Below are positions 180 through 33,275 of a stretch of DNA of 56,293 bases, piece after piece; the first letter of the stretch is position 1; every line of letters starts with the position of its first letter. This stretch comes from Nitrososphaerota archaeon (GTDB lineage Archaea; Thermoproteota; Nitrososphaeria; Nitrososphaerales; Nitrosopumilaceae): contig VBPW01000012.1 in NCBI GenBank assembly GCA_005877305.1, positions 1 through 56,293 on the forward strand, read 5' to 3'. A program made the translations under genes and the position numbers. Under the pieces are notes generated by a model that worked only from the letters and a program-made list of their open reading frames with translations, ran no database searches and was not told the origin of the DNA.

Positions 180-1745
180 ATGGCTGGTAAGAGGATAGTC
201 CTAACTGCAGACCGTAGCCTAATGACTAATTATCGAGGTAATTTTCTTTATGGTTTTATTGCTTGTGGCCCTTACGAAGTTCTTCCTGAATGGGTCTTCG
301 ATAAAGTATTTTGTCCAAGTGTAGAAACCGATCCAGTCACTGGTGAAGCCAAAGTTGCCCAAGTCGGTTTACGAAGAGTAGAATCTGCTCTCCTACAGGG
401 ATACAATAGAGACGAAGTCTTTGTGGCTCAACCAGATCATCTTGCAAAATGTATAGGTCCAGACACAAAAGTAGTTGGAATTAATGTTATGGATCCTCTT
501 GGTATGGCACCAGTTACCACAACAATGTCGCCAGAGAAACTTTCGTATGTTGCAATGAAATTCAAAAGAATGTGTGCTAGTATTATTCAGTTAAAGAAAA
601 AATATAATTTTCATGTTGTTGTTGGTGGAAATGGTGCATGGGAACTTGCAAAAACCGATAGAATGAAAATTCATGGAATTGATACTGTTGTTGTAGGTGA
701 AGCAGATGAGCTTGCACTTGATTTATTTCATGATTTAGAAAAAGGCGATGCTCCAGAATTAATGCATTGTTTTGTTAAAAATATTCAAAACATTCCGATT
801 ATCCAAGGTCCTACAGTAAATTCATTGATCGAGGCAATGCGTGGATGTGGACGAGGCTGTGACTTTTGTGATGTCAATAAGAGATCAAAAAAAGATTTAC
901 CCTTAGAAAGATTACAACATGAAGCAAAGATAAATCTTGATTATGGTTTTGATTCGATCTGGTTACATTCAGATGAAATGCTACTTTATGGCTGTGATAA
1001 CCGAAACTTTCAACCAAACTATGATGCAATAATCGGATTGTGGAAGGGATTAAAATCACTTGGTGCAAGATTTGTTGGTACAACTCACATGACGTTTTCT
1101 GCGGTTTGCGCTGATCCAAAATTGTTATATGACATGTCAGAAATTAATGGAATGAGTAATGAAAAATGGCTTGCAACAAACTTGGGAATAGAAACTGTTG
1201 CACCAAGAATGGTAAAAAAACATCTTGGGGTGAAGACTAAACCTTTCTCTACAGATGAATGGGGTTGGATAGTAAGAGAAGGTGCCAAGGTCTTAAATCA
1301 GAATCATTGGTTCCCTGCGGCAACTCTCATAATAGGATGGCCAGATGAGACCCCTGACGAAACAAAATACACGATAGATCTAGTTGAGGATTTCAAACAA
1401 ACACGAATGCGTGGTCTTGTTGCTCCTCTACTTTACCAGGACTTTAATGAAAAGAATTCTATGCACTTTGGTAACCTAAACGAAGCACAATTTACCTTAT
1501 TTTGGAAATGTTGGGAACATAATTTGCGAGTCATAAATGATATCATACCAATAATCATTAGAAACAAATCATTTGGACCTCCAATGAAGGTACTCATGTA
1601 TGGTATGATAAAGGCTGGAACTTGGGCAATTATGAGGTATTTGAGGGGCTTGTCTAAAGAACTATTCAATGGAAGGCTTCCAAACGAAATAATGGAACAC
1701 TATTCTAGGAGCAGATCTGTTAATGCTCCTGCATATACTAAGTAA
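180..1745 (+). CDS. Radical SAM enzyme with N-terminal B12-binding-like/flavodoxin-like domain
   Basis: 521-aa ORF. CGRGCDFC is a canonical CX3CX2C radical-SAM cluster motif about 220 aa in, preceded by a Rossmann-like VVVGGNG region. Subfamily cannot be assigned by eye. Confidence 0.8.
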   Translation: MAGKRIVLTADRSLMTNYRGNFLYGFIACGPYEVLPEWVFDKVFCPSVETDPVTGEAKVAQVGLRRVESALLQGYNRDEVFVAQPDHLAKCIGPDTKVVGINVMDPLGMAPVTTTMSPEKLSYVAMKFKRMCASIIQLKKKYNFHVVVGGNGAWELAKTDRMKIHGIDTVVVGEADELALDLFHDLEKGDAPELMHCFVKNIQNIPIIQGPTVNSLIEAMRGCGRGCDFCDVNKRSKKDLPLERLQHEAKINLDYGFDSIWLHSDEMLLYGCDNRNFQPNYDAIIGLWKGLKSLGARFVGTTHMTFSAVCADPKLLYDMSEINGMSNEKWLATNLGIETVAPRMVKKHLGVKTKPFSTDEWGWIVREGAKVLNQNHWFPAATLIIGWPDETPDETKYTIDLVEDFKQTRMRGLVAPLLYQDFNEKNSMHFGNLNEAQFTLFWKCWEHNLRVINDIIPIIIRNKSFGPPMKVLMYGMIKAGTWAIMRYLRGLSKELFNGRLPNEIMEHYSRSRSVNAPAYTK

Positions 1746-2076
1746 GATTTTTTTCTAATTCTTTTATTGCAGCATCAGCGATCGTATTTCTTTTTGGTGT
1801 GAGAACAACAAAATAATTTTTGTCTGTTCTTTCAGCAACTTCAACGGTTCTATATTTTTTTGAATTCATATCAAATTCTAACATTTTACCATCAAGCTTG
1901 CCTTTTGTATATATCATGAGATACATGGTTCCTGTTGTAGGATTAAGTGGAATGAGTGAGAATATGTAACCTTTGTAGGAATTTATCGGTAACATGTTTT
2001 TCATGGGAGGAGCTATTGTTGACATGTAAACAAAAATATCTTCTGGAGAATTAAATTCTTCAAACTCAAAATTCAT
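1738..2076 (-). CDS. Hypothetical protein (112 aa), last gene downstream of the PEFG-CTERM gene array
   Basis: Clean ORF with ATG start, co-directional with the array. Its 3' end converges on and overlaps the radical-SAM gene by 8 nt. No recognisable motif. Confidence 0.45.
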   Translation of the reverse strand: MNFEFEEFNSPEDIFVYMSTIAPPMKNMLPINSYKGYIFSLIPLNPTTGTMYLMIYTKGKLDGKMLEFDMNSKKYRTVEVAERTDKNYFVVLTPKRNTIADAAIKELEKNLT

Positions 2077-2135: not shown

Positions 2136-2255
2136 GTTCTAGTATTTTGGCATGAATCTTAGCCCAGTCTTTGCAGAAACCACAATTATGGATATAATTG
2201 CAATTGCAAGTACTAGAGCTGCTATTGGGCCAAACTCTGGAACTATTTGTGTACC
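2136..2255 (-). repeat. 3' cassette module copy 1 (120 bp, encodes PEFG-CTERM tail plus stop)
   Basis: Read as identical base-for-base to 3061..3180 and 4564..4683, and to 3940..4046 over 107 bp. Confidence 0.9.
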
Positions 2256-3023
2256 GATAATATCAATTTTAGTGTCACTAGCATGGAATGGAATACTAAG
2301 ATCTCTTGTGTTAATATCTTTTGTTTCTGTAAACTGTACTGGTGCCCCATTTATCATGATAATAAATTTATCATCTGGTAATGTGCTTGGATTTATTTTT
2401 ACTCCTGCTAGTTTTTCATCAGCAGTTAGATTAGCTTGTACTTTGGCATCCATCAATGTTCTTGGCAAATCTACTGTTATTGAACCATCTGATGTAGCAG
2501 CTATTGTTATCTCAAGTGCCAACTTGTCAGCGTAAATATCCATGCTTTTCACAGTACCTCCTTTGATGATGTATGGAACACTATAGGTTTGACCTCCAGC
2601 GTTAATCTGGAAGGAATCCTTTATCACAGGAATATTTGTAATAATTTGTCCATTGCCTCCGCTATAGTGGAAGGTAGCAGTTGCATTTTGATATCTTCCA
2701 TATTGAGCTATAACAGTATAATTTCCTGCTTGTGTCCATAAAGGACCATTAGCTTTTATTGTATCAGAAAAACCCCCGCTAGAAGTAGGAATGAATTGAC
2801 CAATTGAAATTAAGTTTTTTATCGAATTAAAAACTCTAATAGTAATTGCTGTTTCATTTTCTAATTGTCTCACTGCACCTTTTATGATTATAGTGTCACC
2901 CTGATTGTATGATTTTAGATCTGTTGTAACTATAATGGGAGGGGTTGTAGTTAAAGTTGAATTTTGAAGAAGCTTATATGCAGTGGTTACATTTGCGTTG
3001 GGATTAGTTGGACCTGTCTGCCT
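2139..3023 (-). pseudogene. PEFG-CTERM sorting-domain surface protein, 5'-truncated (no start codon or signal peptide)
   Basis: The track ORF 2139..2873 starts at an internal GTG. The same frame stays open to 3023 and encodes ...TTPPIIVTTDLKSYNQGDTIIIKG, homologous to the N-domain of the 4567..5466 paralog. A stop at 3024-3026 follows and there is no signal peptide. C-terminus is PEFGPIAALVLAIAIISIIVVSAKTGLRFMPKY. Confidence 0.7.
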
Positions 3024-3060
3024 TTACTATAATTAGATCTAAAAAATGACAAAATTGATT

Positions 3061-3180
3061 GTTCTAGTATTTTGGCATGAATCTTAGCCCAGTCTTTGCA
3101 GAAACCACAATTATGGATATAATTGCAATTGCAAGTACTAGAGCTGCTATTGGGCCAAACTCTGGAACTATTTGTGTACC
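3061..3180 (-). repeat. 3' cassette module copy 2
   Basis: Identical to copy 1. Identity with copy 4 extends to 3191, and upstream into the aaaaaatga.aaaattgatt flank. Confidence 0.9.
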
Positions 3181-3420
3181 AATGATTTCAACATCCTGGT
3201 CTCCTTGCAAAAATTGTATTGTTAATGTTCTAAAGTTATTGCTTGTTTCTTCACCTTGTGGTTTTACTTCTGCTCCATCTATTAAGATGATAAATGCATC
3301 ATCCTGCCCGTTACTAGTTTTAGCATCAATTAATGATCTTGGAATTAGAAGAGCAATTGATCCGTCACTAGTAGAATTTAAAGAGACAATTAAAGAAATA
3401 CTTTGAGGATCTATAGTCAT
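3064..3420 (-). CDS. PEFG-CTERM protein, C-terminal fragment (anchor half, no signal peptide)
   Basis: 118 aa. Homologous to the second domain of the 299-aa paralog (SLIVSLNSTSDGSIALLIPRSLIDAK...) and carries the identical PEFG-CTERM tail. Its ATG overlaps the upstream ORF's TGA (ATGA at 3417-3420). Confidence 0.6.
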   Translation of the reverse strand: MTIDPQSISLIVSLNSTSDGSIALLIPRSLIDAKTSNGQDDAFIILIDGAEVKPQGEETSNNFRTLTIQFLQGDQDVEIIGTQIVPEFGPIAALVLAIAIISIIVVSAKTGLRFMPKY

Positions 3421-3878
3421 ATATTTGGATCACAACTTGCTGCACCGCCTCCGGGAATAGTAAACTGGACTTTGCTTGATGTTCCCTGCTCGTTTCCATA
3501 TTGGGCAAAAATTGTGTAAACTCCACCTTTAGTCCATAAAGGACTTGCGGTGTTTATCTTTGTTCCAAAATCGCCATTGTTGTCCAACATTAGTTGACTT
3601 ATCTGAACAATATTGCCTGCAGGATCACTTACTCGTATGGTGACTTGTTGACCTGGGTAAGGATTTCTCACATGACCAGTTACCATAATGATGGAATTGT
3701 GATCATAGATTGGCTTGTCAGTAGACACAGTTACTGGAATAGGTATTGTTTCAGTAGGTCCTTGATTGGGTCCTCCTGACGACGGTAGCACTTGATATTG
3801 TGCAAAAGCTGGAACCACTCCCACAACAGCTATTGTGGCAAGAATAGCGATCAGCGCGTATTCTCTATGAGTACTCAT
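3417..3878 (-). CDS. PEFG-CTERM family protein, N-terminal fragment (signal peptide plus Ig-like domain, no anchor)
   Basis: 153 aa. Signal peptide MSTHREYALIAILATIAVVGVVPAFA is identical to that of the 3943..4503 gene. Carries the TDKPIYDH...GHV...GVYTIFAQYG domain. Ends where paralogs continue into domain 2 or the anchor. Confidence 0.65.
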   Translation of the reverse strand: MSTHREYALIAILATIAVVGVVPAFAQYQVLPSSGGPNQGPTETIPIPVTVSTDKPIYDHNSIIMVTGHVRNPYPGQQVTIRVSDPAGNIVQISQLMLDNNGDFGTKINTASPLWTKGGVYTIFAQYGNEQGTSSKVQFTIPGGGAASCDPNI

Positions 3879-3888
3879 CTTGTTTGCG
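3801..3888 (-). repeat. 5' cassette module copy a (88 bp: leader, ATG, signal peptide)
   Basis: tgcaaaagctggaacc...gtactcatcttgtttgcg is identical to 4426..4513. Confidence 0.9.
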
Positions 3889-3903
3889 GTTTAGTCGGTA
3901 TCA

Positions 3904-3920
3904 CTATTTATATATTTAAA
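3904..3920 (-). promoter_or_regulatory. Putative archaeal TATA box/BRE for the 3417..3878 gene
   Basis: On the coding strand this reads tttaaatatataaatag, about 28-40 nt upstream of the ATG. Equivalent elements occur at 4531-4548 and, abutting the truncated gene, at 3025-3040. Confidence 0.4.
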
Positions 3921-3939
3921 AAAATGAAAAAAATTGATT

Positions 3940-4046
3940 GTTCTAGTATTTTGGCATGAATCTTAGCCCAGTCTTTGCAGAAACCACAATTATGGATATA
4001 ATTGCAATTGCAAGTACTAGAGCTGCTATTGGGCCAAACTCTGGAA
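3940..4046 (-). repeat. 3' cassette module copy 3 (107 bp)
   Basis: Identical to the other copies up to ...ctctggaa, then diverges because the short-form gene joins the anchor directly to domain 1. Confidence 0.9.
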
Positions 4047-4503
4047 TCGCTGGTGGTTGTCCAGGTATTTCGCCAGTAAGTTGAATCAGAACTGAATTCG
4101 TTCTACCTTGTTGCTCTCCTAGTTGGACATAAATTGTGTATGCGCCATTTTCTGTCCATACTGGGCTTGCAGTGTTTAACTTAGTGGTGTAGTCGCCGTT
4201 GGTATCAGGTGTTAGTTGTGCAATACTTACAACGTTTCCCGATGGGCTAGTTACTTTCAAGCCAACATCTGCACCTGGGTATGCATGATCCACATGACCA
4301 CTTACTATTATAGTAGATTTGTGATCATACGTTGGTTTGTCCGTAGATACAGATATTGGCAGAATTGGTCCACTTGCAGCAAGGGGGTTGTAATTTGCCT
4401 TTGGATTACAATCTGGTGGACAGTCTGCAAAAGCTGGAACCACTCCCACAACAGCTATTGTGGCAAGAATAGCGATCAGCGCGTATTCTCTATGAGTACT
4501 CAT
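3943..4503 (-). CDS. Secreted PEFG-CTERM sorting-domain protein (short form: signal peptide, one Ig-like domain, anchor)
   Basis: 186 aa with N-terminal signal peptide, TDKPTYDH...GAYTIYVQ domain and C-terminal PEFG motif plus TM helix plus basic tail. Confidence 0.85.
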   Translation of the reverse strand: MSTHREYALIAILATIAVVGVVPAFADCPPDCNPKANYNPLAASGPILPISVSTDKPTYDHKSTIIVSGHVDHAYPGADVGLKVTSPSGNVVSIAQLTPDTNGDYTTKLNTASPVWTENGAYTIYVQLGEQQGRTNSVLIQLTGEIPGQPPAIPEFGPIAALVLAIAIISIIVVSAKTGLRFMPKY

Positions 4504-4513
4504 CTTGTTTGCG
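4426..4513 (-). repeat. 5' cassette module copy b
   Basis: Identical to 3801..3888. Confidence 0.9.
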
Positions 4514-4530
4514 ATAAGGAGGAATGGGTA

Positions 4531-4548
4531 TTTATGTATATTTAAAAA
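4531..4548 (-). promoter_or_regulatory. Putative TATA box/BRE for the 3943..4503 gene
   Basis: AT-rich ttttaaatatacataaa on the coding strand, about 28-45 nt upstream of the ATG. Confidence 0.4.
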
Positions 4549-4563
4549 ATGAAAAAATTGATT

Positions 4564-4683
4564 GTTCTAGTATTTTGGCATGAATCTTAGCCCAGTCTTT
4601 GCAGAAACCACAATTATGGATATAATTGCAATTGCAAGTACTAGAGCTGCTATTGGGCCAAACTCTGGAACTATTTGTGTACC
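4564..4683 (-). repeat. 3' cassette module copy 4
   Basis: Identical to copies 1 and 2. Identity with copy 2 extends to 4694. Confidence 0.9.
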
Positions 4684-5466
4684 AATGATTTCAATTTGTC
4701 CGGTTCCATCTGTGAAGGGAATGATTAGGGTTCTATCTGTGGTTGTTTTGGTCTCGGTAAAGTCAGCTTGTTGACCATCATTTACAACAACGAACTGATC
4801 ATCTGTTTGTTCATTCATCTTTGCATCAATTAATGCTCTTGGTAGAGTTATGGTTAGTTGTCCATTTCCTGTTGTTTGTATTGACACGATCAGTGATTTA
4901 GACTGGATGTCAGCCTTGATTCCGAGCACTTTGCCATTTGTGATGCTATAAGATACTGAATAATCAGTGCCCTCTACTTTTATGGTGTTTCTAGATGGTG
5001 TTCCTCCCTTGGAACCAGTAAACTGAAGTGTTGTTTTGGCTGATCTATCTTTACTGCCAAACTGTACATCTACTTCATAAGTACCAGCAGCTTGCCACAA
5101 ACCACCGCCTGCGGTAATCGTTGTGGAAAATGTTTTGTCAGTTCCAAGATCTATCTGAGAGATTGACACAACATTTCCAATTGGATTTCTAACTATAACT
5201 GAAACTGGTGTGCCAGAGATGTAATCTCTTGTTGTTCCTGATATGATGATTTTATCGCCATCGTTATACGATGTTTTGTCCGTTGTGACAGTAATTGGTA
5301 CTGATGTTGTGGTCGTAGGATTTGTTGTACCTGCTATTGGATTCTGGTATGGGTTTTGTGTACCTGTAGAATTTGTACTTGTAGAATTGGCTGCAAAAAC
5401 CGGAATAGTTCCAGTTGCAGCAACCAGAATTGCAAGTAATACAAATCCACTAAAAGGAGTACTCAT
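4567..5466 (-). CDS. Secreted PEFG-CTERM sorting-domain protein (long form, two domains)
   Basis: 299 aa with signal peptide, Thr/Asn-rich linker, TDKTSYNDGDKIIISG domain, a second beta-rich domain and the identical PEFG-CTERM tail. Confidence 0.85.
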   Translation of the reverse strand: MSTPFSGFVLLAILVAATGTIPVFAANSTSTNSTGTQNPYQNPIAGTTNPTTTTSVPITVTTDKTSYNDGDKIIISGTTRDYISGTPVSVIVRNPIGNVVSISQIDLGTDKTFSTTITAGGGLWQAAGTYEVDVQFGSKDRSAKTTLQFTGSKGGTPSRNTIKVEGTDYSVSYSITNGKVLGIKADIQSKSLIVSIQTTGNGQLTITLPRALIDAKMNEQTDDQFVVVNDGQQADFTETKTTTDRTLIIPFTDGTGQIEIIGTQIVPEFGPIAALVLAIAIISIIVVSAKTGLRFMPKY

Positions 5467-5637
5467 CTTGTTTGGTGAATTATTTTTTCACTATTTAAGG
5501 TTGCGGAAAAAATTATTGACAAGAAACAGTAAATTTCAAATGCCACCAATTAGATATATATTAACCTCTCGGCAAAACGTTCGTAGTTTGTGGATTAATT
5601 GTACATTTACAGCTAATGTTCGAAGGAGTTCTTTAAC

Positions 5638-5889
5638 ATGATAACTAAAAAAGATCACATACTAGTTCCGGATCATATCTATGTTCCAAAACATGAGATA
5701 ATGACAAAAAAAGAAGCTGAAGAAATACTTGAGAAATTTCATACAAAACCAACTGAAATGCCCCTAATTTACGTAAATGATCCTGCCATCAAAGGATTGG
5801 GAGTCAAACCAGGTGATATGATAAAGATAACAAGAAAAAGCGCAACTGCAGGTGAGAGTATCTATTATAGATACGTGGTGGAAGAGTAA
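5638..5889 (+). CDS. rpoH: DNA-directed RNA polymerase subunit H (Rpo5)
   Basis: 83 aa. HILVPDH..VPKHEIMTKKEAEEIL...LPLIYVNDPAIKGLGVKPGDMIKITRKS..AGESIYYRYVV is the typical RpoH sequence. The stop overlaps the rpoB ATG (TAATG). Confidence 0.92.
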   Translation: MITKKDHILVPDHIYVPKHEIMTKKEAEEILEKFHTKPTEMPLIYVNDPAIKGLGVKPGDMIKITRKSATAGESIYYRYVVEE

Positions 5890-8800
5890 TGGCAAACATT
5901 TCAAACAAACGTTGGCCTATCATTCAGGATATACTAAAAAGAGAAGGAATAGCTCGCCAACACCTTAATTCATATGATGAGTTTTTGGAGAGAGGTCTTC
6001 AAAGTATCATTGATGAAGTAATGGTTCAATCACACACATAGCTCCTATGGAAGCAAGACTACGCAACGTTACATATGCCTCACCTGTAATGCTTGAGGCA
6101 AGTGTAGTGGAAGATGGAAAAATTCTTGAATCAAGGTTTGTCCACATTGGAGACATGCCAGTTATGGTAAGGTCAAACGCATGTCTTTTGCATAATCTCT
6201 CTGATCAAAAACTTGTAGAATATGGAGAGGATCCAAATGACCCCGGTGGATACTTTATCATAAATGGATCAGAGCGAGTGATTGTTGGACTTGAAGATCT
6301 TTCTTACAATAAAATTATAGTTGATAAAGAAACGATAGGAGGAAACACTGTTTTCAAAGCTAAAGTTTATTCATCAATTGTTGGTTATCGTGCAAAACTA
6401 GAACTCATAATGAAAAATGATGGATTGATTGTTGCAAAAATTCCTGGTTCTCCTGTTGATATACCTGTTGTTACTTTAATGCGAGCACTTGGACTTGGAT
6501 CTGATAGAGAAATTGCAGCTTCAGTTTCACTCGTTGACGATATCCAAGATGAACTTGAAGCATCTTTTGAAAAATCAGGCGATGTACCAACTGCAAAAGA
6601 TGCTATAGTATACATCAGTAAGAGAATTGCACCTGGAATGCTTGAAGAATTTCAGATAAAAAGGGCAGAGACTTTGCTTGACTGGGGACTTTTGCCACAC
6701 CTTGGTAAACATCCTGACAATAGAAAAGAAAAAGCACAATTTCTTGGAGAAGCAGCGTGTAAATTAATTGAATTAAAACTAGGTTGGCTTACCCCTGATG
6801 ACAAAGACCATTACGGAAATAAGGTCATAAAATTTGCAGGACAGATGCTCGCAGATCTATTCAGAACTGCATTTAGAAACTTGGTTCGAGATATGAAATA
6901 TCAACTTGAGCGTTCTGGGCAGAAAAGAGGAATCAATGCAGTTGCTGCTGCGGTAAGACCAGGTATAGTTACTGACAAACTAAACAATGCAATTGCTACA
7001 GGAAACTGGGGAAGAGGTAGAGTTGGAGTAACACAGCTCCTAGACAGGACTAATTATCTTTCAACAATTAGTCACCTTAGAAGAATTCAATCTCCATTGA
7101 GTAGAAGTCAACCAAACTTTGAAGCAAGAGATTTACATTCAACGCATTTTGGTAGAATATGTCCAAGTGAAACACCAGAAGGATCAAACTGTGGGCTAGT
7201 CAAGAATCTTGCTCTTTCTGCGATAATATCAGTAAACGTTCCATCAGAAGATATTATTGAAAAACTCTACGATCTTGGTACTACATATGTTTCAGATGCA
7301 AAAGATGAACTAAAAAAAGAAGGAACAAGAGTCTTTGTAGATGGAAGATTAATTGGATATTATAAAGACGGACAAAAACTTGCAGATTCATTACGTGAAC
7401 TTAGAAGAAACTTCAAAATTCATCCTCATATTGGTATATTTTTGTATCAATCTGACTTTGAAGGATCTACAAAGCGACTTTACGTAAACTGCAATGCAGG
7501 AAGAGTTCTGCGCCCTTTAATTGTAATAAAAGACAACAAGCCACTTTTAACACAAGAACTCATCGATAAGGTAAGTAAGAAATTCCTTTCTTGGAGTGAT
7601 CTCTTACACATGGGAGTAATTGAATTAGTGGATGCAAATGAAGAAGAAAACTGTTACATTGCAATGGATGAAGAAAATGTAAAAAAGCATACTCACATGG
7701 AAATATTTCCATCTGCAATTCTTGGTGCGGGCGCATCTATAATACCATATCCTGAACATAATCAATCTCCACGAAATACATATGAATCAGCTATGGCAAA
7801 ACAAAGTCTTGGGTTCTCAACTCCTTTGATGAACGCAAGTACCTATGTTCGCCAACATTTCATGTTGTATCCACAAACTCCAATTGTAACAACAAAGGCA
7901 ATGGGACTTTTGGGACTAGAAGACAGACCTGCTGGCCAAAATTGCGTTGTTGCAGTATTACCATTTGACGGTTACAACATAGAAGATGCCATAGTTCTGA
8001 GCAGATCTTCAGTAGAAAGAGGATTGGGTAGAACTTTTTTTTATAGGATCTATGAAGCAGAGGCAAAACAATATCCTGGTGGCATGCGAGATAATTTTGA
8101 AATTCCAAACGCAGAGGCAAACATACGCGGTTTTCGTGGTGAAAAAGCTTACAGATTGTTAGAAGAAGACGGAGTAATTGCAACAGAATCAATGGTTCAA
8201 GGTGGTGATATTCTAATTGGAAAGACTAGTCCACCAAGATTCATGGAAGAATATAGGGAGTTTGAGGTAAAAGGCCCATATCGAAGAGACACATCAATTG
8301 GAGTAAGACCATCAGAGAATGGTGTTGTGGATACCGTTGTCATGACTCAATCACATGATGGTGGTAGAATGTATAAAATTCGAGTTAGAGATGTAAGAAT
8401 TCCTGAAATTGGTGACAAATTTGCATCAAGACATGGTCAGAAAGGAGTAGTAGGTTTATTAGTAAACCATGAAGATTTGCCATATACATCTGATGGAGTT
8501 GTTCCAGACGTACTGATTAATCCACACGCATTCCCGTCTAGAATGACTGTTGGAATGTTTCTAGAATCAGTGACGGGAAAAGCTGCAGCATTTCGAGGTA
8601 CAAAGATGGATGGCTCTGCATTTGTAGGAGAAAAGCTTGAAAGTGTCAAAGGAATTCTAGAATCTGCTGGTTTCAAATATTCAGGAAAAGAAGTAATGTA
8701 TGATGGAAGAACAGGAAAAGCATTTCCTGCAGAAGTTTTCATTGGAGTTGTATATTATCAAAAACTTCACCACATGGTTGCAGATAAGATTCATGCCCGA

Positions 8801-9148
8801 GCAAGAGGACAAGTACAGATGTTAACTAAACAACCAACAGAAGGCCGTGCACGTGGAGGTGGTCTTCGATTTGGAGAAATGGAACGAGACTGTCTTATTG
8901 CATACGGTGCTTCTATGATGTTAAAGGACAGATTGCTTGATGAATCAGATAAAGCAGACATCTATATTTGCGAAAGATGTGGACTAGTATCATATTATGA
9001 CATAAAACAAAGACGATTTGTTTGCCGAGTTTGTGGTGACAAAGCAAAGGTGACATCAATCTCAGTTGCTTATGCATTTAAGTTGTTATTGCAGGAAATG
9101 ATGAGCTTAGATGTAGCTCCACGACTTTTGATAAAGGAGAAGGTATAA
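5889..9148 (+). CDS. rpoB: DNA-directed RNA polymerase subunit B (Rpo2), unsplit; 5' region disrupted in this sequence
   Basis: The ATG at 5889 opens a 50-codon ORF (MANISNKRWPIIQDILKREGIARQHLNSYDEFLERGLQSIIDEV...) that stops at 6039-6041. The main 1033-aa ORF (6047..9148) continues in another frame from ..GSITHIAPMEARLRNVTYASP. Conserved Rpo2 blocks are present throughout, including GEMERDC and the C-terminal Zn ribbon CERCG...CRVCG. Confidence 0.9.
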
Positions 9149-10812
9149 TGGCGCTTGAAACAATAAAAATAATTGATGGAATCAAGTTTTCTGTTTGGTC
9201 ACCTACAGAAATCAGAAAATATTCAGTTGCAGAAATTACTGCCCCAGAAACTTATGATGAAGACGGAATGTCCGTCCAAGGCGGGTTAATGGATGGAAGA
9301 CTTGGAACATTAGAGCCAGGACAAAAATGTATCACATGTGGTAATACTGCAGCAAGGTGTCCAGGACATTTTGGTCACATCGAACTTGCCGAACCTGTAC
9401 TACACATTGCATTTATTGATAACATATACAAGCTTCTTCTGACTACATGTAGATCTTGTGCTAGGCTGAAAATTCCGAAAGAAGACCTTGAAGAATACCA
9501 TAGAATACTGAACAAAGAAGCTGCCTATACAGTAGTATCTGTAAAACACATACCAGATCAAATTATTGAAAAAGCAAAAAAGGAAAAAACATGTCCACAT
9601 TGCGGTAAATCCCAATATGATCTGATCTTTACAAAACCGACAATCTTTATTGAAAAAACAGAACTTGGTGAAAATAGATTACTGCCAATAACAATTAGGG
9701 AAAGATTTTCTCACATGATTGATGATGATTTGAAACTCTTGGGTTATGATCCTTCAACTGCAAGACCAGAATGGTTTGTGCTCCAAGTCTTGCCTGTGCC
9801 ACCTGTAACTGTAAGACCATCAATAATTTTAGAAACAGGAATCAGATCAGAAGATGATCTAACACACAAACTTGTTGACATAATAAGAGTAAATCAGAGA
9901 TTAAAAGAAAGCAAAGAAGCAGGAACTCCTCCGCTTATTGTACAAGATCTCGTTGATTTATTGCAATATCATACAACGACATATTTCGATAATGAGGTTT
10001 CAGGAATTCCACAAGCTCATCACAGATCTGGTAGACCGCTTAAAACCTTGACACAAAGACTGAAAGGAAAAGAGGGAAGATTCAGAGGCTCGCTTTCTGG
10101 AAAAAGAGTAGACTTTTCCAGTAGAACTGTGATCTCTCCAGATCCAAGCCTTGACATTGCTGAAGTTGGGGTTCCAGAATCTGTAGCACTCAAACTTACA
10201 ATACCCGAAGTTGTTACAGAATGGAATATTGAAAGATTAAAAAGACTTGTAATAAATGGTCCAAACAAATTCCCAGGTGCAAATTATATTGTAAGACCTG
10301 ACGGAGTGAAGATTCGACTTGATTTTGTTGAAGATAGAGAAACAATAGCAAACAATATCGAAATTGGATATCTTATCGAAAGACATCTATCAGATGGTGA
10401 CATAGTCATGTTCAACAGACAGCCATCTTTGCATCAAATGTCAATTATGGGCCATTACGTTAAGGTCTTGCCAGGTAAAACTTTTAGATTACATCCATCG
10501 GTCTGTCCACCTTACAACGCTGACTTTGATGGAGATGAGATGAACCTACACGTACCTCAAAGCGAGGAAGCCAGAGCTGAAGCAATTCTTTTAATGCGTG
10601 TCCAAGATCAATTAATTTCACCAAGATATGGAGGACCAATAATTGGTGCATTACGTGATTTCATCACAGGGGCTTATCTGTTAACAAAAGATGGTACTAC
10701 ACTAAATCCTCAAGAGTTTAACTATTTTCACTTTTTATGCCAAAAGATTTTAACTATGTTATTACATCAAAATGGTCTAAAGGAACCAAAGGTCCTGCAA
10801 AAGATGTTGTAA
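9148..10812 (+). CDS. rpoA: DNA-directed RNA polymerase subunit A (Rpo1), N-terminal ORF of a frame-disrupted unsplit gene
   Basis: 554 aa with the Zn-binding CITCG...CPGHFGH motif and the catalytic NADFDGDEMN motif. The last roughly 30 aa (after ..LNPQEFN) are out-of-frame read-through. Confidence 0.9.
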   Translation: MALETIKIIDGIKFSVWSPTEIRKYSVAEITAPETYDEDGMSVQGGLMDGRLGTLEPGQKCITCGNTAARCPGHFGHIELAEPVLHIAFIDNIYKLLLTTCRSCARLKIPKEDLEEYHRILNKEAAYTVVSVKHIPDQIIEKAKKEKTCPHCGKSQYDLIFTKPTIFIEKTELGENRLLPITIRERFSHMIDDDLKLLGYDPSTARPEWFVLQVLPVPPVTVRPSIILETGIRSEDDLTHKLVDIIRVNQRLKESKEAGTPPLIVQDLVDLLQYHTTTYFDNEVSGIPQAHHRSGRPLKTLTQRLKGKEGRFRGSLSGKRVDFSSRTVISPDPSLDIAEVGVPESVALKLTIPEVVTEWNIERLKRLVINGPNKFPGANYIVRPDGVKIRLDFVEDRETIANNIEIGYLIERHLSDGDIVMFNRQPSLHQMSIMGHYVKVLPGKTFRLHPSVCPPYNADFDGDEMNLHVPQSEEARAEAILLMRVQDQLISPRYGGPIIGALRDFITGAYLLTKDGTTLNPQEFNYFHFLCQKILTMLLHQNGLKEPKVLQKML

Positions 10813-12854
10813 TAAAAAATGGTCAGCTAATCAGTGGAGTAATTGACAAGGCGTCAATTGGTGCTGAAGAGCCAGATAGTGTTTTGCATAGAATTACAAA
10901 AGACTATGGATATGATGAAGCCAAGAAATTCCTAAATTCCATCTTAATAATGTTAAAACAATTTATCACACATTACGGTTTTAGCTATGGATATTCTGAT
11001 CTTGAACTTTCGACAAAAACAAAAGAAAACATCCTAGGTGGAATACAAGAAACATATGATAAGGTTTATGATCTTATTTCTCAGGCAAAGAAAGGAACAT
11101 TGCAGCTTAGCAGAGGCCTTTCTGCAGATGAAGCCTTAGAGGCATACATTGTAAATGAGCTGTCAAAAGCAAGAGATAGAGCGGGAAGCACAGCTGACAA
11201 GTCATTTGATGAAACAAATTCTGGTAGAATTATGGCAACAACTGGTGCTAGAGGTTCTTCTCTTAACATAGGACAGATGGCTGGTGCATTAGGTCAACAA
11301 TCAATTAGAGGAAGAAGGATCAATAAAGGATACAACAATCGAGCTCTGCCACACTTTAAAGAAAATGATACAAATCCAGACGCGAAGGGATTTGTAAAAT
11401 CAAACTATCGTGATGGCCTTTCAACTTTAGAATTTTTCTTCCACGCAATGGGAGGACGTGAAGGCCTTGTAGATACTGCAGTTAGAACCCAGCAAAGTGG
11501 CTACATGCAAAGAAGATTGATCAACGCCCTTGAACATCTGAAGCTAGAATATGATGGAACTGTAAGAGATCCACATGGTCATATCATACAATTCTTGTAC
11601 GGAGAAGATGGAATTGATGTTGCAAAAAGTGACCACGGTGAAGCATTTAGAATTCAAAGACTGGTAGAATCTGAAACCATTATTGATACAGGTAAAAAAG
11701 TAACAAAGGAAGAGATAACAGAACTTGCCAAGAAATACACAAAGACATTCAATCCACGATTAACACAAACAGTTCATGCTGCGTTACTTGAATCAAAACT
11801 AAGCAAAGAAGGTGTAGAAAAAGTTTGCAAGAAAGCATTAGAGTTGTACGATAAGGCCAAAGTAGAACCAGGACAAGCAGTAGGAATAGTAACTGCACAA
11901 TCTATTGGTGAGCCTGGAACTCAGATGACTCTGAGAACATTCCACTTTGCAGGAATTAGAGAAAGAAATGTAACGCTAGGTCTTCCAAGATTGATAGAAC
12001 TTGTTGATGCACGCAAAAAACCAGTAACACCAACAATGGATATCTACCTAGAAGAAAATCACAAAAAATCAAAAGAAAAAGCAATCAAGGTTGCTCGTGA
12101 AATCTTACATACCAAAATTAGTGCACTAATATCAAGCACAGAAACTGATTATTCTACAAAAATAAAACTAAATCTCAATACTGACAAGCTAAAAGAAAGA
12201 GCATGCACAATAGCAGATGTTGAAGAAGCATTACAATCATCAAAAAAGAAATTTGAAATTGAAACTAGCGGTAATTCTATTACACTTACACTTTCTGAAG
12301 AATCAGATGCACAAACAATACTTGCAATGAGAAATAAAATACTTGGTACTAAAGTAAAAGGTGTAGCTGATGTTGAAAGAGTTACTATAGTACAACAAGG
12401 AGATGAATGGGTGATACAAACATCGGGTTCCAATATTGCAAAGGTGTTTGAAATTGACGGCGTTGACAAGAGAAACATACGCACAAACAATGTCTTTGAG
12501 ATTGCAAGCACACTAGGAATTGAAGCAGCACGTAACGCATTGATAAATGAGCTGAGTTCTACACTTGAGGATCAAGGTCTTGAAGTTGACATTAGATATA
12601 TTATGCTTGTTGCAGATTTGATGTGTTCTCGAGGATATATGCAACAAATTGGAAGACACGGAATTGCTGGAACAAAGACAAGTGTACTTGCAAGAGCTGC
12701 ATTTGAAATTACTGTTCCAACAATTGCGGAAGCTGCGCTAGCCGGAGAGGTTGAACAATTAAAAGGTGTAACAGAAAATGTAATCGTTGGTGGAAACATC
12801 CCAGTAGGAACTGGAACTGTAGATCTTTACATGAGAGTAGTTGAAGATGGCTAA
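10737..12854 (+). CDS. rpoA: DNA-directed RNA polymerase subunit A (Rpo1), C-terminal ORF (A' C-terminus fused to the A'' equivalent)
   Basis: 705 aa. The bridge-helix block GREGLVDTAVRTQQSGYMQRRL and the trigger-loop block AQSIGEPGTQMTLRTFHFAG lie in one ORF. The frame is open from 10722 (LFSLFMPKDFNY...). Confidence 0.9.
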   Translation: MPKDFNYVITSKWSKGTKGPAKDVVIKNGQLISGVIDKASIGAEEPDSVLHRITKDYGYDEAKKFLNSILIMLKQFITHYGFSYGYSDLELSTKTKENILGGIQETYDKVYDLISQAKKGTLQLSRGLSADEALEAYIVNELSKARDRAGSTADKSFDETNSGRIMATTGARGSSLNIGQMAGALGQQSIRGRRINKGYNNRALPHFKENDTNPDAKGFVKSNYRDGLSTLEFFFHAMGGREGLVDTAVRTQQSGYMQRRLINALEHLKLEYDGTVRDPHGHIIQFLYGEDGIDVAKSDHGEAFRIQRLVESETIIDTGKKVTKEEITELAKKYTKTFNPRLTQTVHAALLESKLSKEGVEKVCKKALELYDKAKVEPGQAVGIVTAQSIGEPGTQMTLRTFHFAGIRERNVTLGLPRLIELVDARKKPVTPTMDIYLEENHKKSKEKAIKVAREILHTKISALISSTETDYSTKIKLNLNTDKLKERACTIADVEEALQSSKKKFEIETSGNSITLTLSEESDAQTILAMRNKILGTKVKGVADVERVTIVQQGDEWVIQTSGSNIAKVFEIDGVDKRNIRTNNVFEIASTLGIEAARNALINELSSTLEDQGLEVDIRYIMLVADLMCSRGYMQQIGRHGIAGTKTSVLARAAFEITVPTIAEAALAGEVEQLKGVTENVIVGGNIPVGTGTVDLYMRVVEDG

Positions 12855-15180: not shown

Positions 15181-15885
15181 ATGCGAAAGGAACTTGAGGA
15201 ATCACTTGAACTTTTATCTAAAAATTGGGATATCAATCCAGTTATACGAGATTTTATCCTAGAAAACCGAACTGATGTTTCTGATTTCGTAATTAAAGTA
15301 AAAGATGTTGTCTTTCACATTCCATATCTGACAAAAGAAGAAAGCTACATCCTTTGGAAGTGTTATTGGCCGGATTGTCATAACTGTTGTGACAGGCAGG
15401 GAAGATTACCTCTTACATCTAATGATCTAATTACAATTAGAAAAGGACTAAAATACCAAAAAGTTTCAGATTTTATAAAAAATGAAACTAATATTGCTAC
15501 ATGGGAAGAAAGAGGCCCATCTGGCAATGCTATTACAATGACCATGATAAACCTGAAACGAAAAAAAGATGAGAAAGAGGCAGAGGATGGGACTCATATT
15601 TCGTGTAGATTTTTGGATGAGAAAGGATATTGCGGTCTCCATCCTAGTAGGCCTGGGGTCTGTTATCTTTATCCATTTTCATCTTGGCTTGAAAATGAAA
15701 AAGGAAGAGCTCGCGTCCATGCAAGCTTTCAGTTTACTGGAGACTGTCCGGGATTTTATCTTTCAAAATCAATTGATGAGATGAAAAATGTTCTTCTAGA
15801 ATATTCTAAAATAATATATGATTATAATATGAGTTCAAACAGAACAGTGCGAGAAGATTTTGGATATGTTACTATGGGGTTCTAA
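15181..15885 (+). CDS. YkgJ/UPF0153-type cysteine-cluster (CxxCxxCC-like) putative Fe-S/zinc protein
   Basis: CYWPDCHNCCDRQG and GYCGLHPSRPGVCYLYPF resemble the two conserved motifs of this family. ATG at 15181; the track start at 15178 is a TTG. Confidence 0.65.
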   Translation: MRKELEESLELLSKNWDINPVIRDFILENRTDVSDFVIKVKDVVFHIPYLTKEESYILWKCYWPDCHNCCDRQGRLPLTSNDLITIRKGLKYQKVSDFIKNETNIATWEERGPSGNAITMTMINLKRKKDEKEAEDGTHISCRFLDEKGYCGLHPSRPGVCYLYPFSSWLENEKGRARVHASFQFTGDCPGFYLSKSIDEMKNVLLEYSKIIYDYNMSSNRTVREDFGYVTMGF

Positions 15886-29577: not shown

Positions 29578-31236
29578 ATGAGAAGAGATAATAAGGAAAT
29601 TAGAGGCGGATTGTTTTACCCAATGATTGAAGATCTTAAGACAACTATCACTGGCAAATTTATGACGCAGCTAAAGGAACAAGGGATTACTACAAGTATC
29701 GTACACCGAAATCTACCAGTAAAATCACTTATTGATATTGTACTTGATAAAAACGAGGGTATCCTTACATCTAATGGTTCGCTTTCTGTAAGAACAGGAA
29801 AATACACTGGCAGGTCACCTGACGACCGCTATATTGTAGATGATATTGAAACCCATACTAACGTAGACTGGGGCAAGATAAATCATCCATTTCCAGAGGA
29901 TAAATTTGACAAGCTTTACGAGAAAATGAAAAAACACATAGATGGAAAAGAATTCTTTGTTTTCGATGGTTTTATTGGAGCAGATCCTGAAAACAGATTG
30001 CCAATTAGGATAATAAATGATCATGCATGGCAGAATCTTTTTGTTAGGCAATTATTCATCAGGCCATCAGTAGCAGAACTTGAATCACACAAGCCAGAAT
30101 TTACTTTGCTTACACTAAATGACTTTAAAACAATTCCTGAAGTTGATGGAACAAGATCTGATGCCTTTATCATACTAAACTTTACAAAAAAGATCGTATT
30201 GATTGGAGCGACTTGTTATGCTGGAGAGATAAAGAAGGCAATGTTTTCTGGCATGAATTACATCCTTCCACCAAAAGGTGTCTTTCCAATGCATTGTTCT
30301 GCGAACGTTGGAAAAAACGGTGACACCGCCTTATTTTTTGGACTATCGGGTACTGGAAAAACTACACTCTCTGCGGATTCAAGCAGAATGCTAATTGGAG
30401 ATGACGAGCACGGTTGGTCAGATAAAGGAATTTTTAATTTTGAAGGAGGATGCTATGCAAAATGCATCAATCTAAACCGAGAAGCAGAACCACAAATTTG
30501 GGACGCAATCAGGTTTGGTTCAGTTTTAGAAAATGTTGTAATAGACAAAAAAACTTTGGCTCCTGACTTTACTGATGGCAGCCTAACAGAAAACACCAGA
30601 GCTGCTTATCCACTTGATTACATTCCTGGTGCAATAATACCAAGTGTTGGAGGACATCCCAAAGTCATTGTATTTCTAACTGCAGATGCATTTGGTGTAA
30701 TGCCACCAATTGCAAGATTGACAAAAGAAGGAGCGATGTATCACTTCATGTCAGGATATACAAGCAAACTTGCAGGAACTGAACGAGGAATTACAGAACC
30801 CAAGGCAACATTTTCAGAATGTTTTGGTGCACCTTTCATGTCAAGACACGCGTCAGTATACGCAAAGATGCTTGGAGAAAAAATCACAAGGCACAACACC
30901 AAAGTCTATCTTATTAACACAGGATGGTCTGGAGGACCATACGGAATAGGTAAGAGAATGAACATCAAACACACAAGAATGATGGTAACTGCGGCCCTTA
31001 CTGGCGCACTTGATATAGTAAAGTATCGACACGATGAGGTATTCAATTTGGATGTGCCAGAAACATGTCCTGATGTACCTTTCGAAGTACTAAATACACG
31101 AAACACATGGGCAGAAAAAGACGGTTACGATCTTTCTGCAAGAAAACTTGCGCAGATGTTTGTCGAGAACTTTAAGAAATTTGGAAATACTCCTCAAGAA
31201 ATCCGTGATGCAGGACCACAGAACTCACATAACTAG
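29578..31236 (+). CDS. pckA: Phosphoenolpyruvate carboxykinase (ATP)
   Basis: Contains GRSPDDRYIV, the kinase-1a motif FFGLSGTGKTTLS, IGDDEHGW and NTGWSGGPYG. The track ORF start at 29476 overlaps L32e, so the first plausible ATG at 29578 (or 29623) is used. Confidence 0.9.
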   Translation: MRRDNKEIRGGLFYPMIEDLKTTITGKFMTQLKEQGITTSIVHRNLPVKSLIDIVLDKNEGILTSNGSLSVRTGKYTGRSPDDRYIVDDIETHTNVDWGKINHPFPEDKFDKLYEKMKKHIDGKEFFVFDGFIGADPENRLPIRIINDHAWQNLFVRQLFIRPSVAELESHKPEFTLLTLNDFKTIPEVDGTRSDAFIILNFTKKIVLIGATCYAGEIKKAMFSGMNYILPPKGVFPMHCSANVGKNGDTALFFGLSGTGKTTLSADSSRMLIGDDEHGWSDKGIFNFEGGCYAKCINLNREAEPQIWDAIRFGSVLENVVIDKKTLAPDFTDGSLTENTRAAYPLDYIPGAIIPSVGGHPKVIVFLTADAFGVMPPIARLTKEGAMYHFMSGYTSKLAGTERGITEPKATFSECFGAPFMSRHASVYAKMLGEKITRHNTKVYLINTGWSGGPYGIGKRMNIKHTRMMVTAALTGALDIVKYRHDEVFNLDVPETCPDVPFEVLNTRNTWAEKDGYDLSARKLAQMFVENFKKFGNTPQEIRDAGPQNSHN

Positions 31237-33275
31237 TTGTGTTTTGCCACTAACCCAACAATTGTAGAAGTAATAATTACTCCAGAAATTATAATAATTG
31301 TCTTTAGGGGAACTCCAAATGACCCTAAAAATTCAATTCCTGTTTTTTCTGCAGAAGTTTCAACCATTATTATATCATAGGCATCATCAACGACATGAGG
31401 CGTGGTTATTTGCGCATGAATCCAATACTCACCTGGTTCATTGACCGCAAGTGATGAGGTCTGTTGTGGAACAATTGATGTGCTTTGAAGTCGTTCTGAA
31501 TCTTTTTTAATTACAGAAATTTTTGCATACAACCAGCTATATGGATAATCAAGACCAAAAGTTAAAATTCCATCTTTTTGAGTTGTGTTAATTGCACCAT
31601 TTGTTACATGAACAAGGACAGGCACGTGATAAGTTGTTGTACCATCATTAATTGCAAGCATTCCATCAAAATTCCCAGTCTTATTTTTTTGGCTTGAAAT
31701 TTTTATGTTTACGAAATCATTTTCAAGGGTGGTCTCTAATTTTAGATCATTTTGATCTGGATAAAATTTTGTTTGAACATTTGTTAATGTTCCTTCTATT
31801 GTTTGTAAGTGTAATGATCTTGTTTGGTATGGTTTTTCTAAAGAGAGATTAAAGACTAGACTGTGTGGAATTATTATCAAATTAGCAGAAAATGCTCTTG
31901 TGAGATTTAATCTTCCACTTCCAGCAAGATCAAGCGGCACATTTTTTCCATAAGCATCTGTAACGGGATCAGCAGTTGTAGAAAGAATTGAGACAACTTG
32001 GTCAGGCTTGAGATTTGGATCTTTTTGTAACAATAGAGCCACTGCTCCAGCAACATGAGGTGCTGCAATACTTGTTCCACTGGTAAGATTATATTTTCCT
32101 CCTATGAGAGTAGAATTTACAAACACACCAGGTGCTACAAGGTCAGGTTTTATGTAAAATGGCGAGACTGGACCACGAGAGCTAAAAGGTGCAATAAAAT
32201 CTGGGTAACTGAATATATCTAACTTTGCTATTGTTTCATTTTGAAGAGCTTTTTTTATCGCAAGCCCATCACTTCGTGAAATTGATATGACGGGTATTGT
32301 TGGGTTGCTAGAGCTGGAATTTTTTTGAACAAGCTCACCAAAAAATATTCCAGATTTGTTGTTATAAACTATGAGAGCTTTGGCACCACTTTGTGCAGCA
32401 TTTTGTTCTTTTTCTGAAAAATAGATCTTTTCACCCTTCACATCACTTCCTCTTTCTACAAGCAAGATGGAATCTTTGACATCTACATTAGTAAGATCTC
32501 TAACTCTACCATATCCTCCAAAGACAACCTTTGCAGTAATTGGTTTTGACAGAGGCTTTGTGCCAAGCATTGGAAGCACTTGGTATTGCGTTTTGCCAAT
32601 TTCTAGCGTAGAGACAATACTTTGTGTAAGGTTGTTATAAGTTGCCCCAACTGTTATTACGTCAAGATCTTTCCCGGGACTTCCAATCGTACCTTCATCT
32701 GGTCCATTATTTCCTGCAGCTACGACAACTATTATTCCATTTTTTACAGCTTCGTTGACAGCTTGATCAATTTCATTATTTGTTTTGTTTAAACCCAGAC
32801 TGATGTTGATTACATTGACCTTGTCTTCAATTGCGCGATGAATAGCTTTTACTATAAGCTCTGATGAGACTGAATCGCCACTTGATGATACTTTATACGC
32901 AAGTAATTTTGCCTTTGGTGCTACTCCCTTGAGACTTCCATCTGCAGCAATTACTCCAGCTACTTCAGTACCATGACCAGAGGTATCAAGTGGTTTTTCG
33001 TTATTATCTATAAAATTGTAACCGCCAACAACTTTGCCAGCAGGACCAAAACCGAGAAGATCTGGATGGTTGTAATCTATTCCAGTATCTATTATGCCAA
33101 TTTTGATTCCTTGTCCTTCAAATCCCTTCTCCCTTGGAATTTCTACACCAATTAGTGACACATTTTTTTCAAGATAAAATTCAAATTTTTGTTGTTCCTT
33201 GATACCTGATAAAATAAGGAACGCACACAAAATTACTACAACAAGAGAAAAAAATACAATTTTGTAATGTTCCAA
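31233..33275 (-). CDS. Secreted subtilisin-like serine protease (peptidase S8) with PA-like insert and C-terminal TM anchor
   Basis: Catalytic triad contexts IGIIDTGID (Asp), GHGTEVAGV (His) and SGTSIAAPHVAG (Ser). N-terminal signal/TM segment and C-terminal hydrophobic helix. Confidence 0.88.
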   Translation of the reverse strand: MEHYKIVFFSLVVVILCAFLILSGIKEQQKFEFYLEKNVSLIGVEIPREKGFEGQGIKIGIIDTGIDYNHPDLLGFGPAGKVVGGYNFIDNNEKPLDTSGHGTEVAGVIAADGSLKGVAPKAKLLAYKVSSSGDSVSSELIVKAIHRAIEDKVNVINISLGLNKTNNEIDQAVNEAVKNGIIVVVAAGNNGPDEGTIGSPGKDLDVITVGATYNNLTQSIVSTLEIGKTQYQVLPMLGTKPLSKPITAKVVFGGYGRVRDLTNVDVKDSILLVERGSDVKGEKIYFSEKEQNAAQSGAKALIVYNNKSGIFFGELVQKNSSSSNPTIPVISISRSDGLAIKKALQNETIAKLDIFSYPDFIAPFSSRGPVSPFYIKPDLVAPGVFVNSTLIGGKYNLTSGTSIAAPHVAGAVALLLQKDPNLKPDQVVSILSTTADPVTDAYGKNVPLDLAGSGRLNLTRAFSANLIIIPHSLVFNLSLEKPYQTRSLHLQTIEGTLTNVQTKFYPDQNDLKLETTLENDFVNIKISSQKNKTGNFDGMLAINDGTTTYHVPVLVHVTNGAINTTQKDGILTFGLDYPYSWLYAKISVIKKDSERLQSTSIVPQQTSSLAVNEPGEYWIHAQITTPHVVDDAYDIIMVETSAEKTGIEFLGSFGVPLKTIIIISGVIITSTIVGLVAKHN

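Follow-up and report, generated by a model that had tools for sequence, protein, structure and literature searches.

The PEFG-CTERM sequence is reportedly a putative archaeosortase substrate signal of Thaumarchaeota (Haft et al. 2012, J Bacteriol). In Haloferax volcanii, the PGF-CTERM/ArtA system cleaves the S-layer glycoprotein at its C-terminus and attaches a lipid to it, and to our knowledge it is the only archaeosortase system with experimental support. We analyzed a 56,293-nt stretch of DNA from a Nitrososphaerota archaeon (contig VBPW01000012.1, positions 1 to 56,293; hereafter the window) that carries a tandem array of PEFG-CTERM surface-protein genes, a gene family of soil ammonia-oxidizing archaea. 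We found that the array shows concerted evolution limited to one segment of each gene, bounded at the PEFG codon and the stop codon, and we regard gene conversion as its highly probable cause. The array resembles the described PEFG-CTERM family (TIGR04296) in having a tripartite C-terminus that scores above the family cutoff, several paralogs per genome, and orthologs named for the signal. The family description covers a protein signal, whereas here the homogenization among paralogs is at the level of DNA. In the four searchable papers that mention PEFG-CTERM, we found no description of DNA-level homogenization of the signal among paralogs and no demonstration of PEFG-CTERM protein processing. 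The PGF-CTERM/ArtA system has the same signal architecture and provides a mechanistic model for the role of the tail in our array, but its motif, enzyme clade, and phylum are different.

Recombining gene families in other organisms offer further comparisons. In the mrp-emm-enn genes of Streptococcus pyogenes, conserved signal-peptide and LPXTG-anchor ends surround variable cores. Like our genes, these emm-like genes are tandem surface paralogs with near-identical export and anchor ends, and the ends are recombination sites. They differ in being bacterial and sortase-based, and in that core exchange between genes and between strains is documented there, whereas we saw none here. The trypanosome VSG, Borrelia vlsE, and Neisseria pilE/pilS systems use silent donor cassettes to convert the core at one expression site. 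These systems share with ours the conserved flanks around variable cores and gene conversion as the process, but in our array the flanks are converted, the cores are untouched, and every gene, judged from its sequence, appears to be independently expressible. Long-lasting concerted evolution of prokaryotic paralogs has been attributed to gene conversion (Wang and Chen 2018, PMC6053082), and gene conversion has been described between duplicated mtrA genes of methanogens (PMC4632066). As in those cases, paralogs within a genome are closer to one another than orthologs from different genomes are, the pattern is attributed to gene conversion, and it persists across deep divergences. In contrast to them, the tract in our array is a sorting signal of ~100 nt that is shared by four or five tandem genes and leaves the remaining 80-90% unconverted, and the products are surface proteins rather than core-pathway enzymes. 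The locus adds an unusually sharp new case to a known type of process, here acting on a known type of signal, and we find no support for cassette shuffling.

Four minus-strand open frames in the window (D, C, B, and A in order of increasing coordinate, Table 1) translate to a common C-terminus, the 33-aa PEFG-CTERM tail PEFGPIAALVLAIAIISIIVVSAKTGLRFMPKY. The DNA encoding this tail, together with the stop codon and 3 further nt, is identical over 107 nt in all four copies (2136-2242, 3061-3167, 3940-4046, and 4564-4670). Pairwise, the identical stretch grows to 120 nt for D/C and D/A and to 141 nt for C/A. A 41-nt tail probe matched exactly these four sites in the window, and 100 shuffles produced zero chance matches. 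We applied a Sawyer-type permutation test, which takes the number of differing sites as given and scores the longest fragment that is identical, and the observed fragment was reached in 0 of 10,000 permutations for each of the six gene pairs. A second module lies at the 5' end, where B and the upstream half of C (C5') share 88 identical nt from -10 to +77 relative to the ATG. Outside these modules, the cores of the window paralogs are saturated at synonymous sites: the proportion of synonymous differences (pS) is 0.48-0.74 for alignable pairs, versus 0 in the tails. An earlier reading of this DNA (the original prediction) had reported the four tails, the 88-nt 5' module, and a 3' flank shared by tail copies 2-4. 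Direct sequence comparison bore out the coordinates and identities of the modules, and the shared flank as well, with differences in the lengths of its T-runs.

We examined the array in related genomes by fetching 80 loci from species-representative genomes, anchored on the neighboring radical-SAM protein (individual loci and contigs are given as L numbers). The Nitrosotalea-like clade (L001-L059, L071) carries a collinear array of up to five paralogs, which we call P1 to P5, in the same position. The conserved array is present in about 25 Nitrosotalea-like genomes, and cultured N. devanaterra carries all five paralogs; P4 or P5 is missing from whole sublineages. An all-against-all comparison of cores from 22 genomes found the best match at the same position in another genome in 84 of 85 cases, the sole exception being a contig-end copy in L002. 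Gene order was collinear in every array compared. The cores evolve fast, with non-synonymous to synonymous ratios (pN/pS) of about 0.2-0.37 when the closest species are compared. Each gene of an intact array comes with a spacer, a start codon, and a signal peptide of its own.

The tails behaved differently from the cores. Across the 102 nt of the tail, paralogs within a genome differed at a mean of 2.4 positions (median 1), and 49% of pairs were identical. Between genomes, orthologous tails differed at 11.0 positions and non-orthologous tails at 10.9, so the tail holds no orthology signal. The nearest neighbor of each tail was found in its own genome in all 85 cases. Paralog identity was 0.99 in the tract that opens with the first base of the PEFG proline codon and closes with the stop codon, and 0.3-0.5 on either side of it. 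Ortholog identity was 0.9 inside the tail and 0.5-0.7 outside, such that the ranking of paralogs and orthologs flips at the PEFG codon and again at the stop. Because the tract is discrete and its flanks follow orthology, whole-gene duplication or unequal crossover is excluded as the homogenizing process.

Sequence variants in the tail were fixed genome by genome. Among 21 genomes, we counted 121 synonymous and 48 non-synonymous codon variants that are fixed in all paralogs of a genome. All five copies in the window species have GTG (Val) at tail codon 20, an Ala-to-Val change, where all others have GCA or GCT. A Leu-to-Phe variant (LVFAIA) occupies every tail copy of L024 and L051, and a Gly-to-Arg variant (KTRLRLMPKY) every tail copy of L009, L011, and L014. 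Mosaic states, with a variant in only some copies, occur in L018, L055, L011, L014, and L037 and show homogenization still in progress. The outgroups L057 and L059 keep the PEFG-CTERM protein consensus with tails that differ by up to 28 nt; in L057, each tail pair differs by 15-28 nt, with a pS of 0.52 that reaches 0.67. Purifying selection on the peptide alone thus does not yield identity. The original prediction had favored gene conversion over purifying selection alone, and the genome-specific synonymous variants common to all paralogs support that choice.

Two further elements follow the behavior of the tails. L071 contains an orphan PEFG tail (15295-15513) that lacks a P4 core and sits on an unrelated 70-codon frame next to rpoH. 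This orphan is 100% identical to the three other tails of L071. The 5' modules of P3 and P4 differ at 0-1 of 78 nt in 7 of 14 genomes, and the between-genome mean is 10.9. Only the first ~58 nt of the module remain identical in the N. devanaterra subclade. In L030, L047, L029, L059, and L071, the 5' tract reaches the mature N-terminus, and the P3 linker is a P4-type FCPPDC segment. As a separate observation, the P1 gene of N. devanaterra in L053 (11967-12995) has lost its stop codon, which adds 16 residues to the tail (…MPKYRTLNITNIIQLHKTKL). The same tail carries an Ala-to-Asp change, and the other four tails of that genome are identical.

We considered whether the tails could instead be kept identical by purifying selection on the nucleotide sequence itself, through an RNA or DNA structure or a regulatory element and without recombination. 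The window tail and its flank fold better than shuffled controls (z = -2.76), and the devanaterra clade has one U-A to A-U double change in the central hairpin. Tail synonymous divergence between genomes is also below that of neighboring genes. Against this explanation, tails from different genomes differ at ~11 of 102 nt, mostly synonymously, and each variant is common to all paralogs of its genome. An alifold consensus of 84 unique tails did not recover the structure, several pairs of which are disrupted in between one third and two thirds of the sequences. The outgroup tails are free to diverge (L057, pS 0.52), and the orphan tail of L071 is still identical to its siblings. We judge this explanation to be extremely improbable. 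An RNA element in the tail was rejected as a candidate, as the hairpin has no covariation support and a search of Rfam gave no match, only a sub-threshold snoRNA hit. Within 4537-4694 of the window (minus strand), the Ile/Ala-rich codons of the transmembrane (TM) segment (GCAATTGCAATTATATCCATAATTG) form an 11-bp hairpin, and its U-A pair is broken in other lineages.

Identical modules might also arise if repeat copies were collapsed or equalized to a consensus during metagenome assembly. The source assembly of the window is faulty, with 88-nt losses in rpoB and rpoA' and two blunt junctions in the array (described below). In addition, the tails are where many contigs from metagenome-assembled genomes (MAGs) break or follow odd routes, and of the 45 MAG contigs that terminate no more than 10 kb from the anchor gene, 27 do so in a tail or next to one. 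However, the same identity is present in the closed isolate chromosome of N. devanaterra (LN890280.1), in N. bavarica, and in the chromosome-level sequence OY969559.1. Three k141 contigs of the window's species carry two or three tails each with the same pattern; their names imply a repeat shorter than k, which spanning k-mers would resolve. A JGI contig with four tails shows the same identity, and over 20 genomes that were assembled independently reproduce the pattern, each having a tail variant of its own. We give almost no weight to an assembly origin of the identical modules.

Some observations nevertheless weigh against gene conversion as the full account. Between genomes, pS in the tail is 0.10-0.35, which is 2-4x below the 0.43-0.79 of the cores or the radical-SAM gene. 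Conversion without bias would not be expected to slow neutral substitution, so an additional nucleotide-level constraint or bias on the tail is implied; possible sources are the codon usage of TM segments, a bias in conversion, or a need for homology. Most of the genomes compared are MAGs built from short reads, and assembly of this kind could level near-identical repeats artificially. Unusual paths through the array occur in L081 (6540-6700, from the P5 tail directly to P2), L087 (1500-1765, where the P3 tail loops back to the P4-P3 spacer), and L002 (14180-14719, with a P1-like copy placed after P2). These paths may be real copy-number variants or repeat-induced assembly paths, and they count among the opposing points in the latter case. 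Finally, a PstS-like phosphate-binding protein encoded in L091 (8001-8150) has a PEFG-CTERM tail with ~85% protein identity to the array tails, and the DNA of this one gene from another genome is at least 14/99 nt from every array tail. This distance hints that homogenization is limited to the array. The L091 contig is crowded with frameshifted gene fragments.

Segment-limited conversion leaves a further question, namely whether the modules are used to exchange the cores between them. The original prediction had cast them as handles for shuffling or replacing surface domains, possibly to create diversity in the face of viruses or grazers; as a rival explanation, this would be a programmed cassette system. 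In its favor, the modules are real and do recombine. On the same-species contig L084 (1740-2013; a k141 contig with its own single-nucleotide polymorphisms), the P5 core, its tail, the P5-P4 spacer, and the 88-nt module are followed by the mature region of P3. P4 has been lost cleanly here, through recombination within the 5' module, and because the 88-nt repeat is shorter than the k suggested by the contig name, the join should be read-supported. The orphan tail of L071 and the lineage-level absences of P4 and P5 fit module-mediated loss. The modules therefore appear to mediate the loss or duplication of whole genes. Variable tract ends, seen in the P4-type linkers of five P3 genes, and the fast evolution of the cores are also compatible with a role in diversification.

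The cores themselves argue against such a system. They are strict positional orthologs in a fixed order, and none was found in a foreign position except the contig-end copy in L002, which resembles an assembly path. No silent donor cassettes are present, given that intact arrays equip each gene for its own expression. The promoterless and split copies are specific to the window and are probably artifacts. Viral contigs scanned with one degenerate tail pattern gave no match, and the same-species contigs show gene loss, not exchange. What we found across the 22 genomes is the static P1-P5 locus with strictly orthologous cores that the original prediction had itself listed as contrary evidence, and we consider a programmed cassette system very improbable. 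The notion of recombination handles survives for the loss or duplication of whole genes (L084, L071), but the proposed shuffling of domains for diversification was never seen.

The array in the window is damaged. Although four genes had been proposed and all four tails are real, only A and B are intact genes; the third gene is two open reading frames (ORFs), and the fourth is headless. "Gene C" consists of overlapping ORFs in different frames (C5' and C3'), which together form an out-of-frame P3/P2 chimera. The mix of one- and two-domain architectures that had been described in this array partly reflects the rearranged, probably mis-assembled stretch. Up to base 3423, the same-strain contigs L086 and L089 match the window at 100% and then continue into an intact 293-aa P3. 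L081 and L089 match it at 100% starting at base 3422 and have an intact 278-aa P2. Both of these contigs also contain an intact 318-aa P1 with the signal peptide MTSRYVILVVIGISSIILMTPVSAQ. At 3422/3423, the window is without 957 nt of L089 that comprise the P3 C-domain, tail, and spacer and the P2 signal peptide and N-domain. The 40-nt segment next to D (Table 1) stands in place of 140 nt of L089, which hold the P2-P1 spacer and the P1 signal peptide. Neither array junction has a repeat or microhomology.

Similar breaks affect the neighboring RNA polymerase genes. The window is without exactly 88 nt in rpoB (6020/6021) and 88 nt in rpoA' (10719/10720), all of which are present in the same-species contigs L081, L082, and L084. 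These losses frameshift rpoB into 5889-6041 and 6047-9148, and rpoA' into 9148-10812 and 10737-12854. Exact 88-nt losses in these essential genes indicate that the array breaks are probably assembly artifacts, and we think it likely that the split gene C and the headless gene D represent abutted scaffold gaps. Alternatively, the P3/P2 chimera and headless P1 could be a real, recent rearrangement that inactivated three of the five genes, for example through template switching. Both junctions are blunt and neither lies in a repeat, unlike classic de Bruijn repeat mis-joins, and the order of P3 N-domain, P2 C-domain with tail, 40 nt of P3-P2 spacer, and P1 could come from a set of switches that includes a homologous one in the tail. 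However, contigs of the same strain match the window at 100% right to the junctions on either side and hold intact P3, P2, and P1, and no database gene matches the 153-aa or 118-aa products. The blunt 88-nt deletions, which other contigs lack, likewise point to abutted scaffold gaps. We consider a real rearrangement unlikely.

Two readings of the region around D were tried and rejected. A MAFFT alignment had presented the 40-nt spacer upstream of D as P1 coding homology, but the same-strain comparison identified it as P3-P2 spacer sequence. D had also looked like a P1 that is missing ~130 aa when set against L002 and L003. P1 of the same species is the short 318-aa type, and only its signal peptide is gone.

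Table 1. Features of the PEFG-CTERM array and its flanks in the window.
Feature	Position	Strand	Remarks
Radical-SAM gene	180-1745	+	one flank of the array
Small conserved ORF	1738-2076	-	between the radical-SAM gene and the array
Tail module copy 1 (D)	2136..2255	-	33 codons, stop codon, and 3 nt
ORF D (P1)	2139..3023	-	without promoter, start codon, or signal peptide; frame open from 3023; first possible start GTG at 2873
40 nt resembling the start of the P3-P2 spacer	3021..3060	-	junction 3020/3021 blunt
Tail module copy 2 (C)	3051..3191	-	141 nt identical to copy 4
ORF C3' (P2 C-terminal domain and tail)	3064..3420	-	without signal peptide
ORF C5' (P3 signal peptide and N-terminal domain)	3417..3878	-	ends at a TGA made by junction 3422/3423
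Junction of P3 N-domain and P2 C-domain	3422..3423		blunt
5' module of P3	3801..3888	-	10-nt leader, ATG, 26-codon signal peptide
P4-P3 spacer	3889..3942	-	same type as P5-P4 spacer
Tail module copy 3 (B)	3928..4046	-	119 nt identical to copy 4
Gene B (P4)	3943..4503	-	intact 186-aa PEFG-CTERM protein, single domain; exact protein also on independent contigs L086-L088
5' module of P4	4426..4513	-	identical to P3 5' module
P5-P4 spacer	4514..4566	-	T-runs right after stop codon; A/T-rich TATA-like box
Tail module copy 4 (A)	4554..4694	-	141 nt identical to copy 2
Gene A (P5)	4567..5466	-	intact, 299 aa; signal peptide, N/T/P-rich linker, two beta-sandwich domains, PEFG, TM helix, basic tail
rpoH	5638-5889	+	other flank of the array

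We confirmed the nature of the tail with the TIGR04296 PEFG-CTERM hidden Markov model, for which the curated NCBIfam cutoff is 25 bits. A, B, C3', and D scored 31.5, 32.2, 33.4, and 32.3 bits, in agreement with the earlier assignment of the tail as a PEFG-CTERM sorting signal. The extreme C-terminus of each tail-bearing ORF reads PEFG-PIAALVLAIAIISIIVV-SAKTGLRFMPKY, which represents the PEFG motif, a hydrophobic helix, and a basic cluster. Inspection by eye, without a predictor, found a signal peptide in A, B, and C5' as a hydrophobic stretch followed by AFA or VFA. C3' and D have none in the window, but the intact P2 and P1 of the same strain do. The T-runs and TATA-like boxes of the spacers, also judged by eye, may serve as terminators and promoters, respectively. 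None of the ten multi-TM ORFs or other ORFs scanned in the 56-kb window matched an archaeosortase model, which is consistent with the prior claim that the window has no archaeosortase gene.

We modeled gene A with AlphaFold2 using 41 orthologs. The mean predicted local distance difference test (pLDDT) score was 71, with values of ~85-94 over most of both domains. The model contains beta-sandwiches at residues ~57-150 and ~160-262 and a C-terminal helix at 271-291. A disordered N/T/P-rich linker follows the signal peptide, and NST sequons can be read from the sequence. A Foldseek search of the model against the PDB returned only generic tandem Ig/MG-like sandwiches (complement MG domains, Fabs, and Sap S-layer domains) and gave no functional assignment. 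The Pfam matches, to MG2 and Big_1, were both sub-threshold. At E <= 1e-5, the family includes 2183 database proteins, which are named only "PEFG-CTERM sorting domain-containing protein". The modeled fold suggests that the products are generic one- or two-domain beta-sandwich proteins anchored at the surface. Exact-protein look-ups found no record of A, C5', or C3'; contigs were obtained only for B and for P0001 and P0002, which are near-identical proteins. A 43-aa tail query against proteins returned only 17 short fragments and was uninformative on other families of tail-bearing proteins.

Additional surface-associated genes were noted in the window and in related loci. The window encodes a 680-aa S8 subtilisin-like protease (31233-33275, minus strand) and a CAP/SCP-domain protein that weakly matches "surface exclusion" (54781-56007, plus strand), both of which are further candidates for secreted or surface proteins. 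Nitrosotenuis-like loci (L063-L080) have a related array of 2-4 PEFG-CTERM genes at about 0.3-4.2 kb, on the opposite side of the radical-SAM gene. In these loci, the P5- and P3-like tails resemble each other and the P2-like tail is quite different, which suggests only partial homogenization.

We propose a model for how the array evolves. The locus is a lineage-conserved tandem family of up to five paralogs, located between rpoH and the radical-SAM gene, in which each gene encodes a predicted Sec-exported surface protein with one or two beta-sandwich domains and a PEFG-CTERM end. Short-tract, non-reciprocal homologous recombination between members of the array would repeatedly overwrite one tail with another, such that each new tail substitution is either erased or spread to all copies. 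The P3/P4 module of leader and signal peptide behaves likewise in many genomes. Conversion tracts would end where paralogs cease to be similar, which is at the PEFG codon on the upstream side and at the stop codon on the downstream side, and with tracts ending there the cores keep diverging as ordinary fast-evolving orthologs. Unequal recombination would also use the identical modules as substrates to remove or duplicate whole genes, and the modules fragment short-read assemblies. RadA-type recombination is a plausible enzymology for these events, the tail is presumably processed by an archaeosortase, and keeping all substrates of one sortase identical may bring a selective benefit.

A stronger version of this model holds that homogenization is itself selected. 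The substrates in the array would then co-evolve as one unit with a single archaeosortase, as in the Ala-to-Val change of the window species, and the modules would ease the dropping or duplicating of surface proteins. The low synonymous rate of the tail could then reflect a requirement, at the nucleotide level, for sustaining recombination. We consider selection for homogenization quite unlikely.

Our results have practical consequences for work on these organisms. The modules break or mis-route short-read assemblies of Nitrosotalea-like MAGs, and phylogenies or dN/dS analyses of these proteins must leave the modules out. The window itself shows that a region of this kind is easily taken for pseudogenes or "cassettes" by mistake. 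For now, the gain in understanding function is small, as the products are generic beta-sandwich surface proteins. More broadly, gene conversion in archaea can stay confined to a functional module of ~100 nt for a very long time while the rest of the gene diverges. This behavior bears on the way in which pairs of signal and enzyme, for example archaeosortases with their substrates, remain matched.

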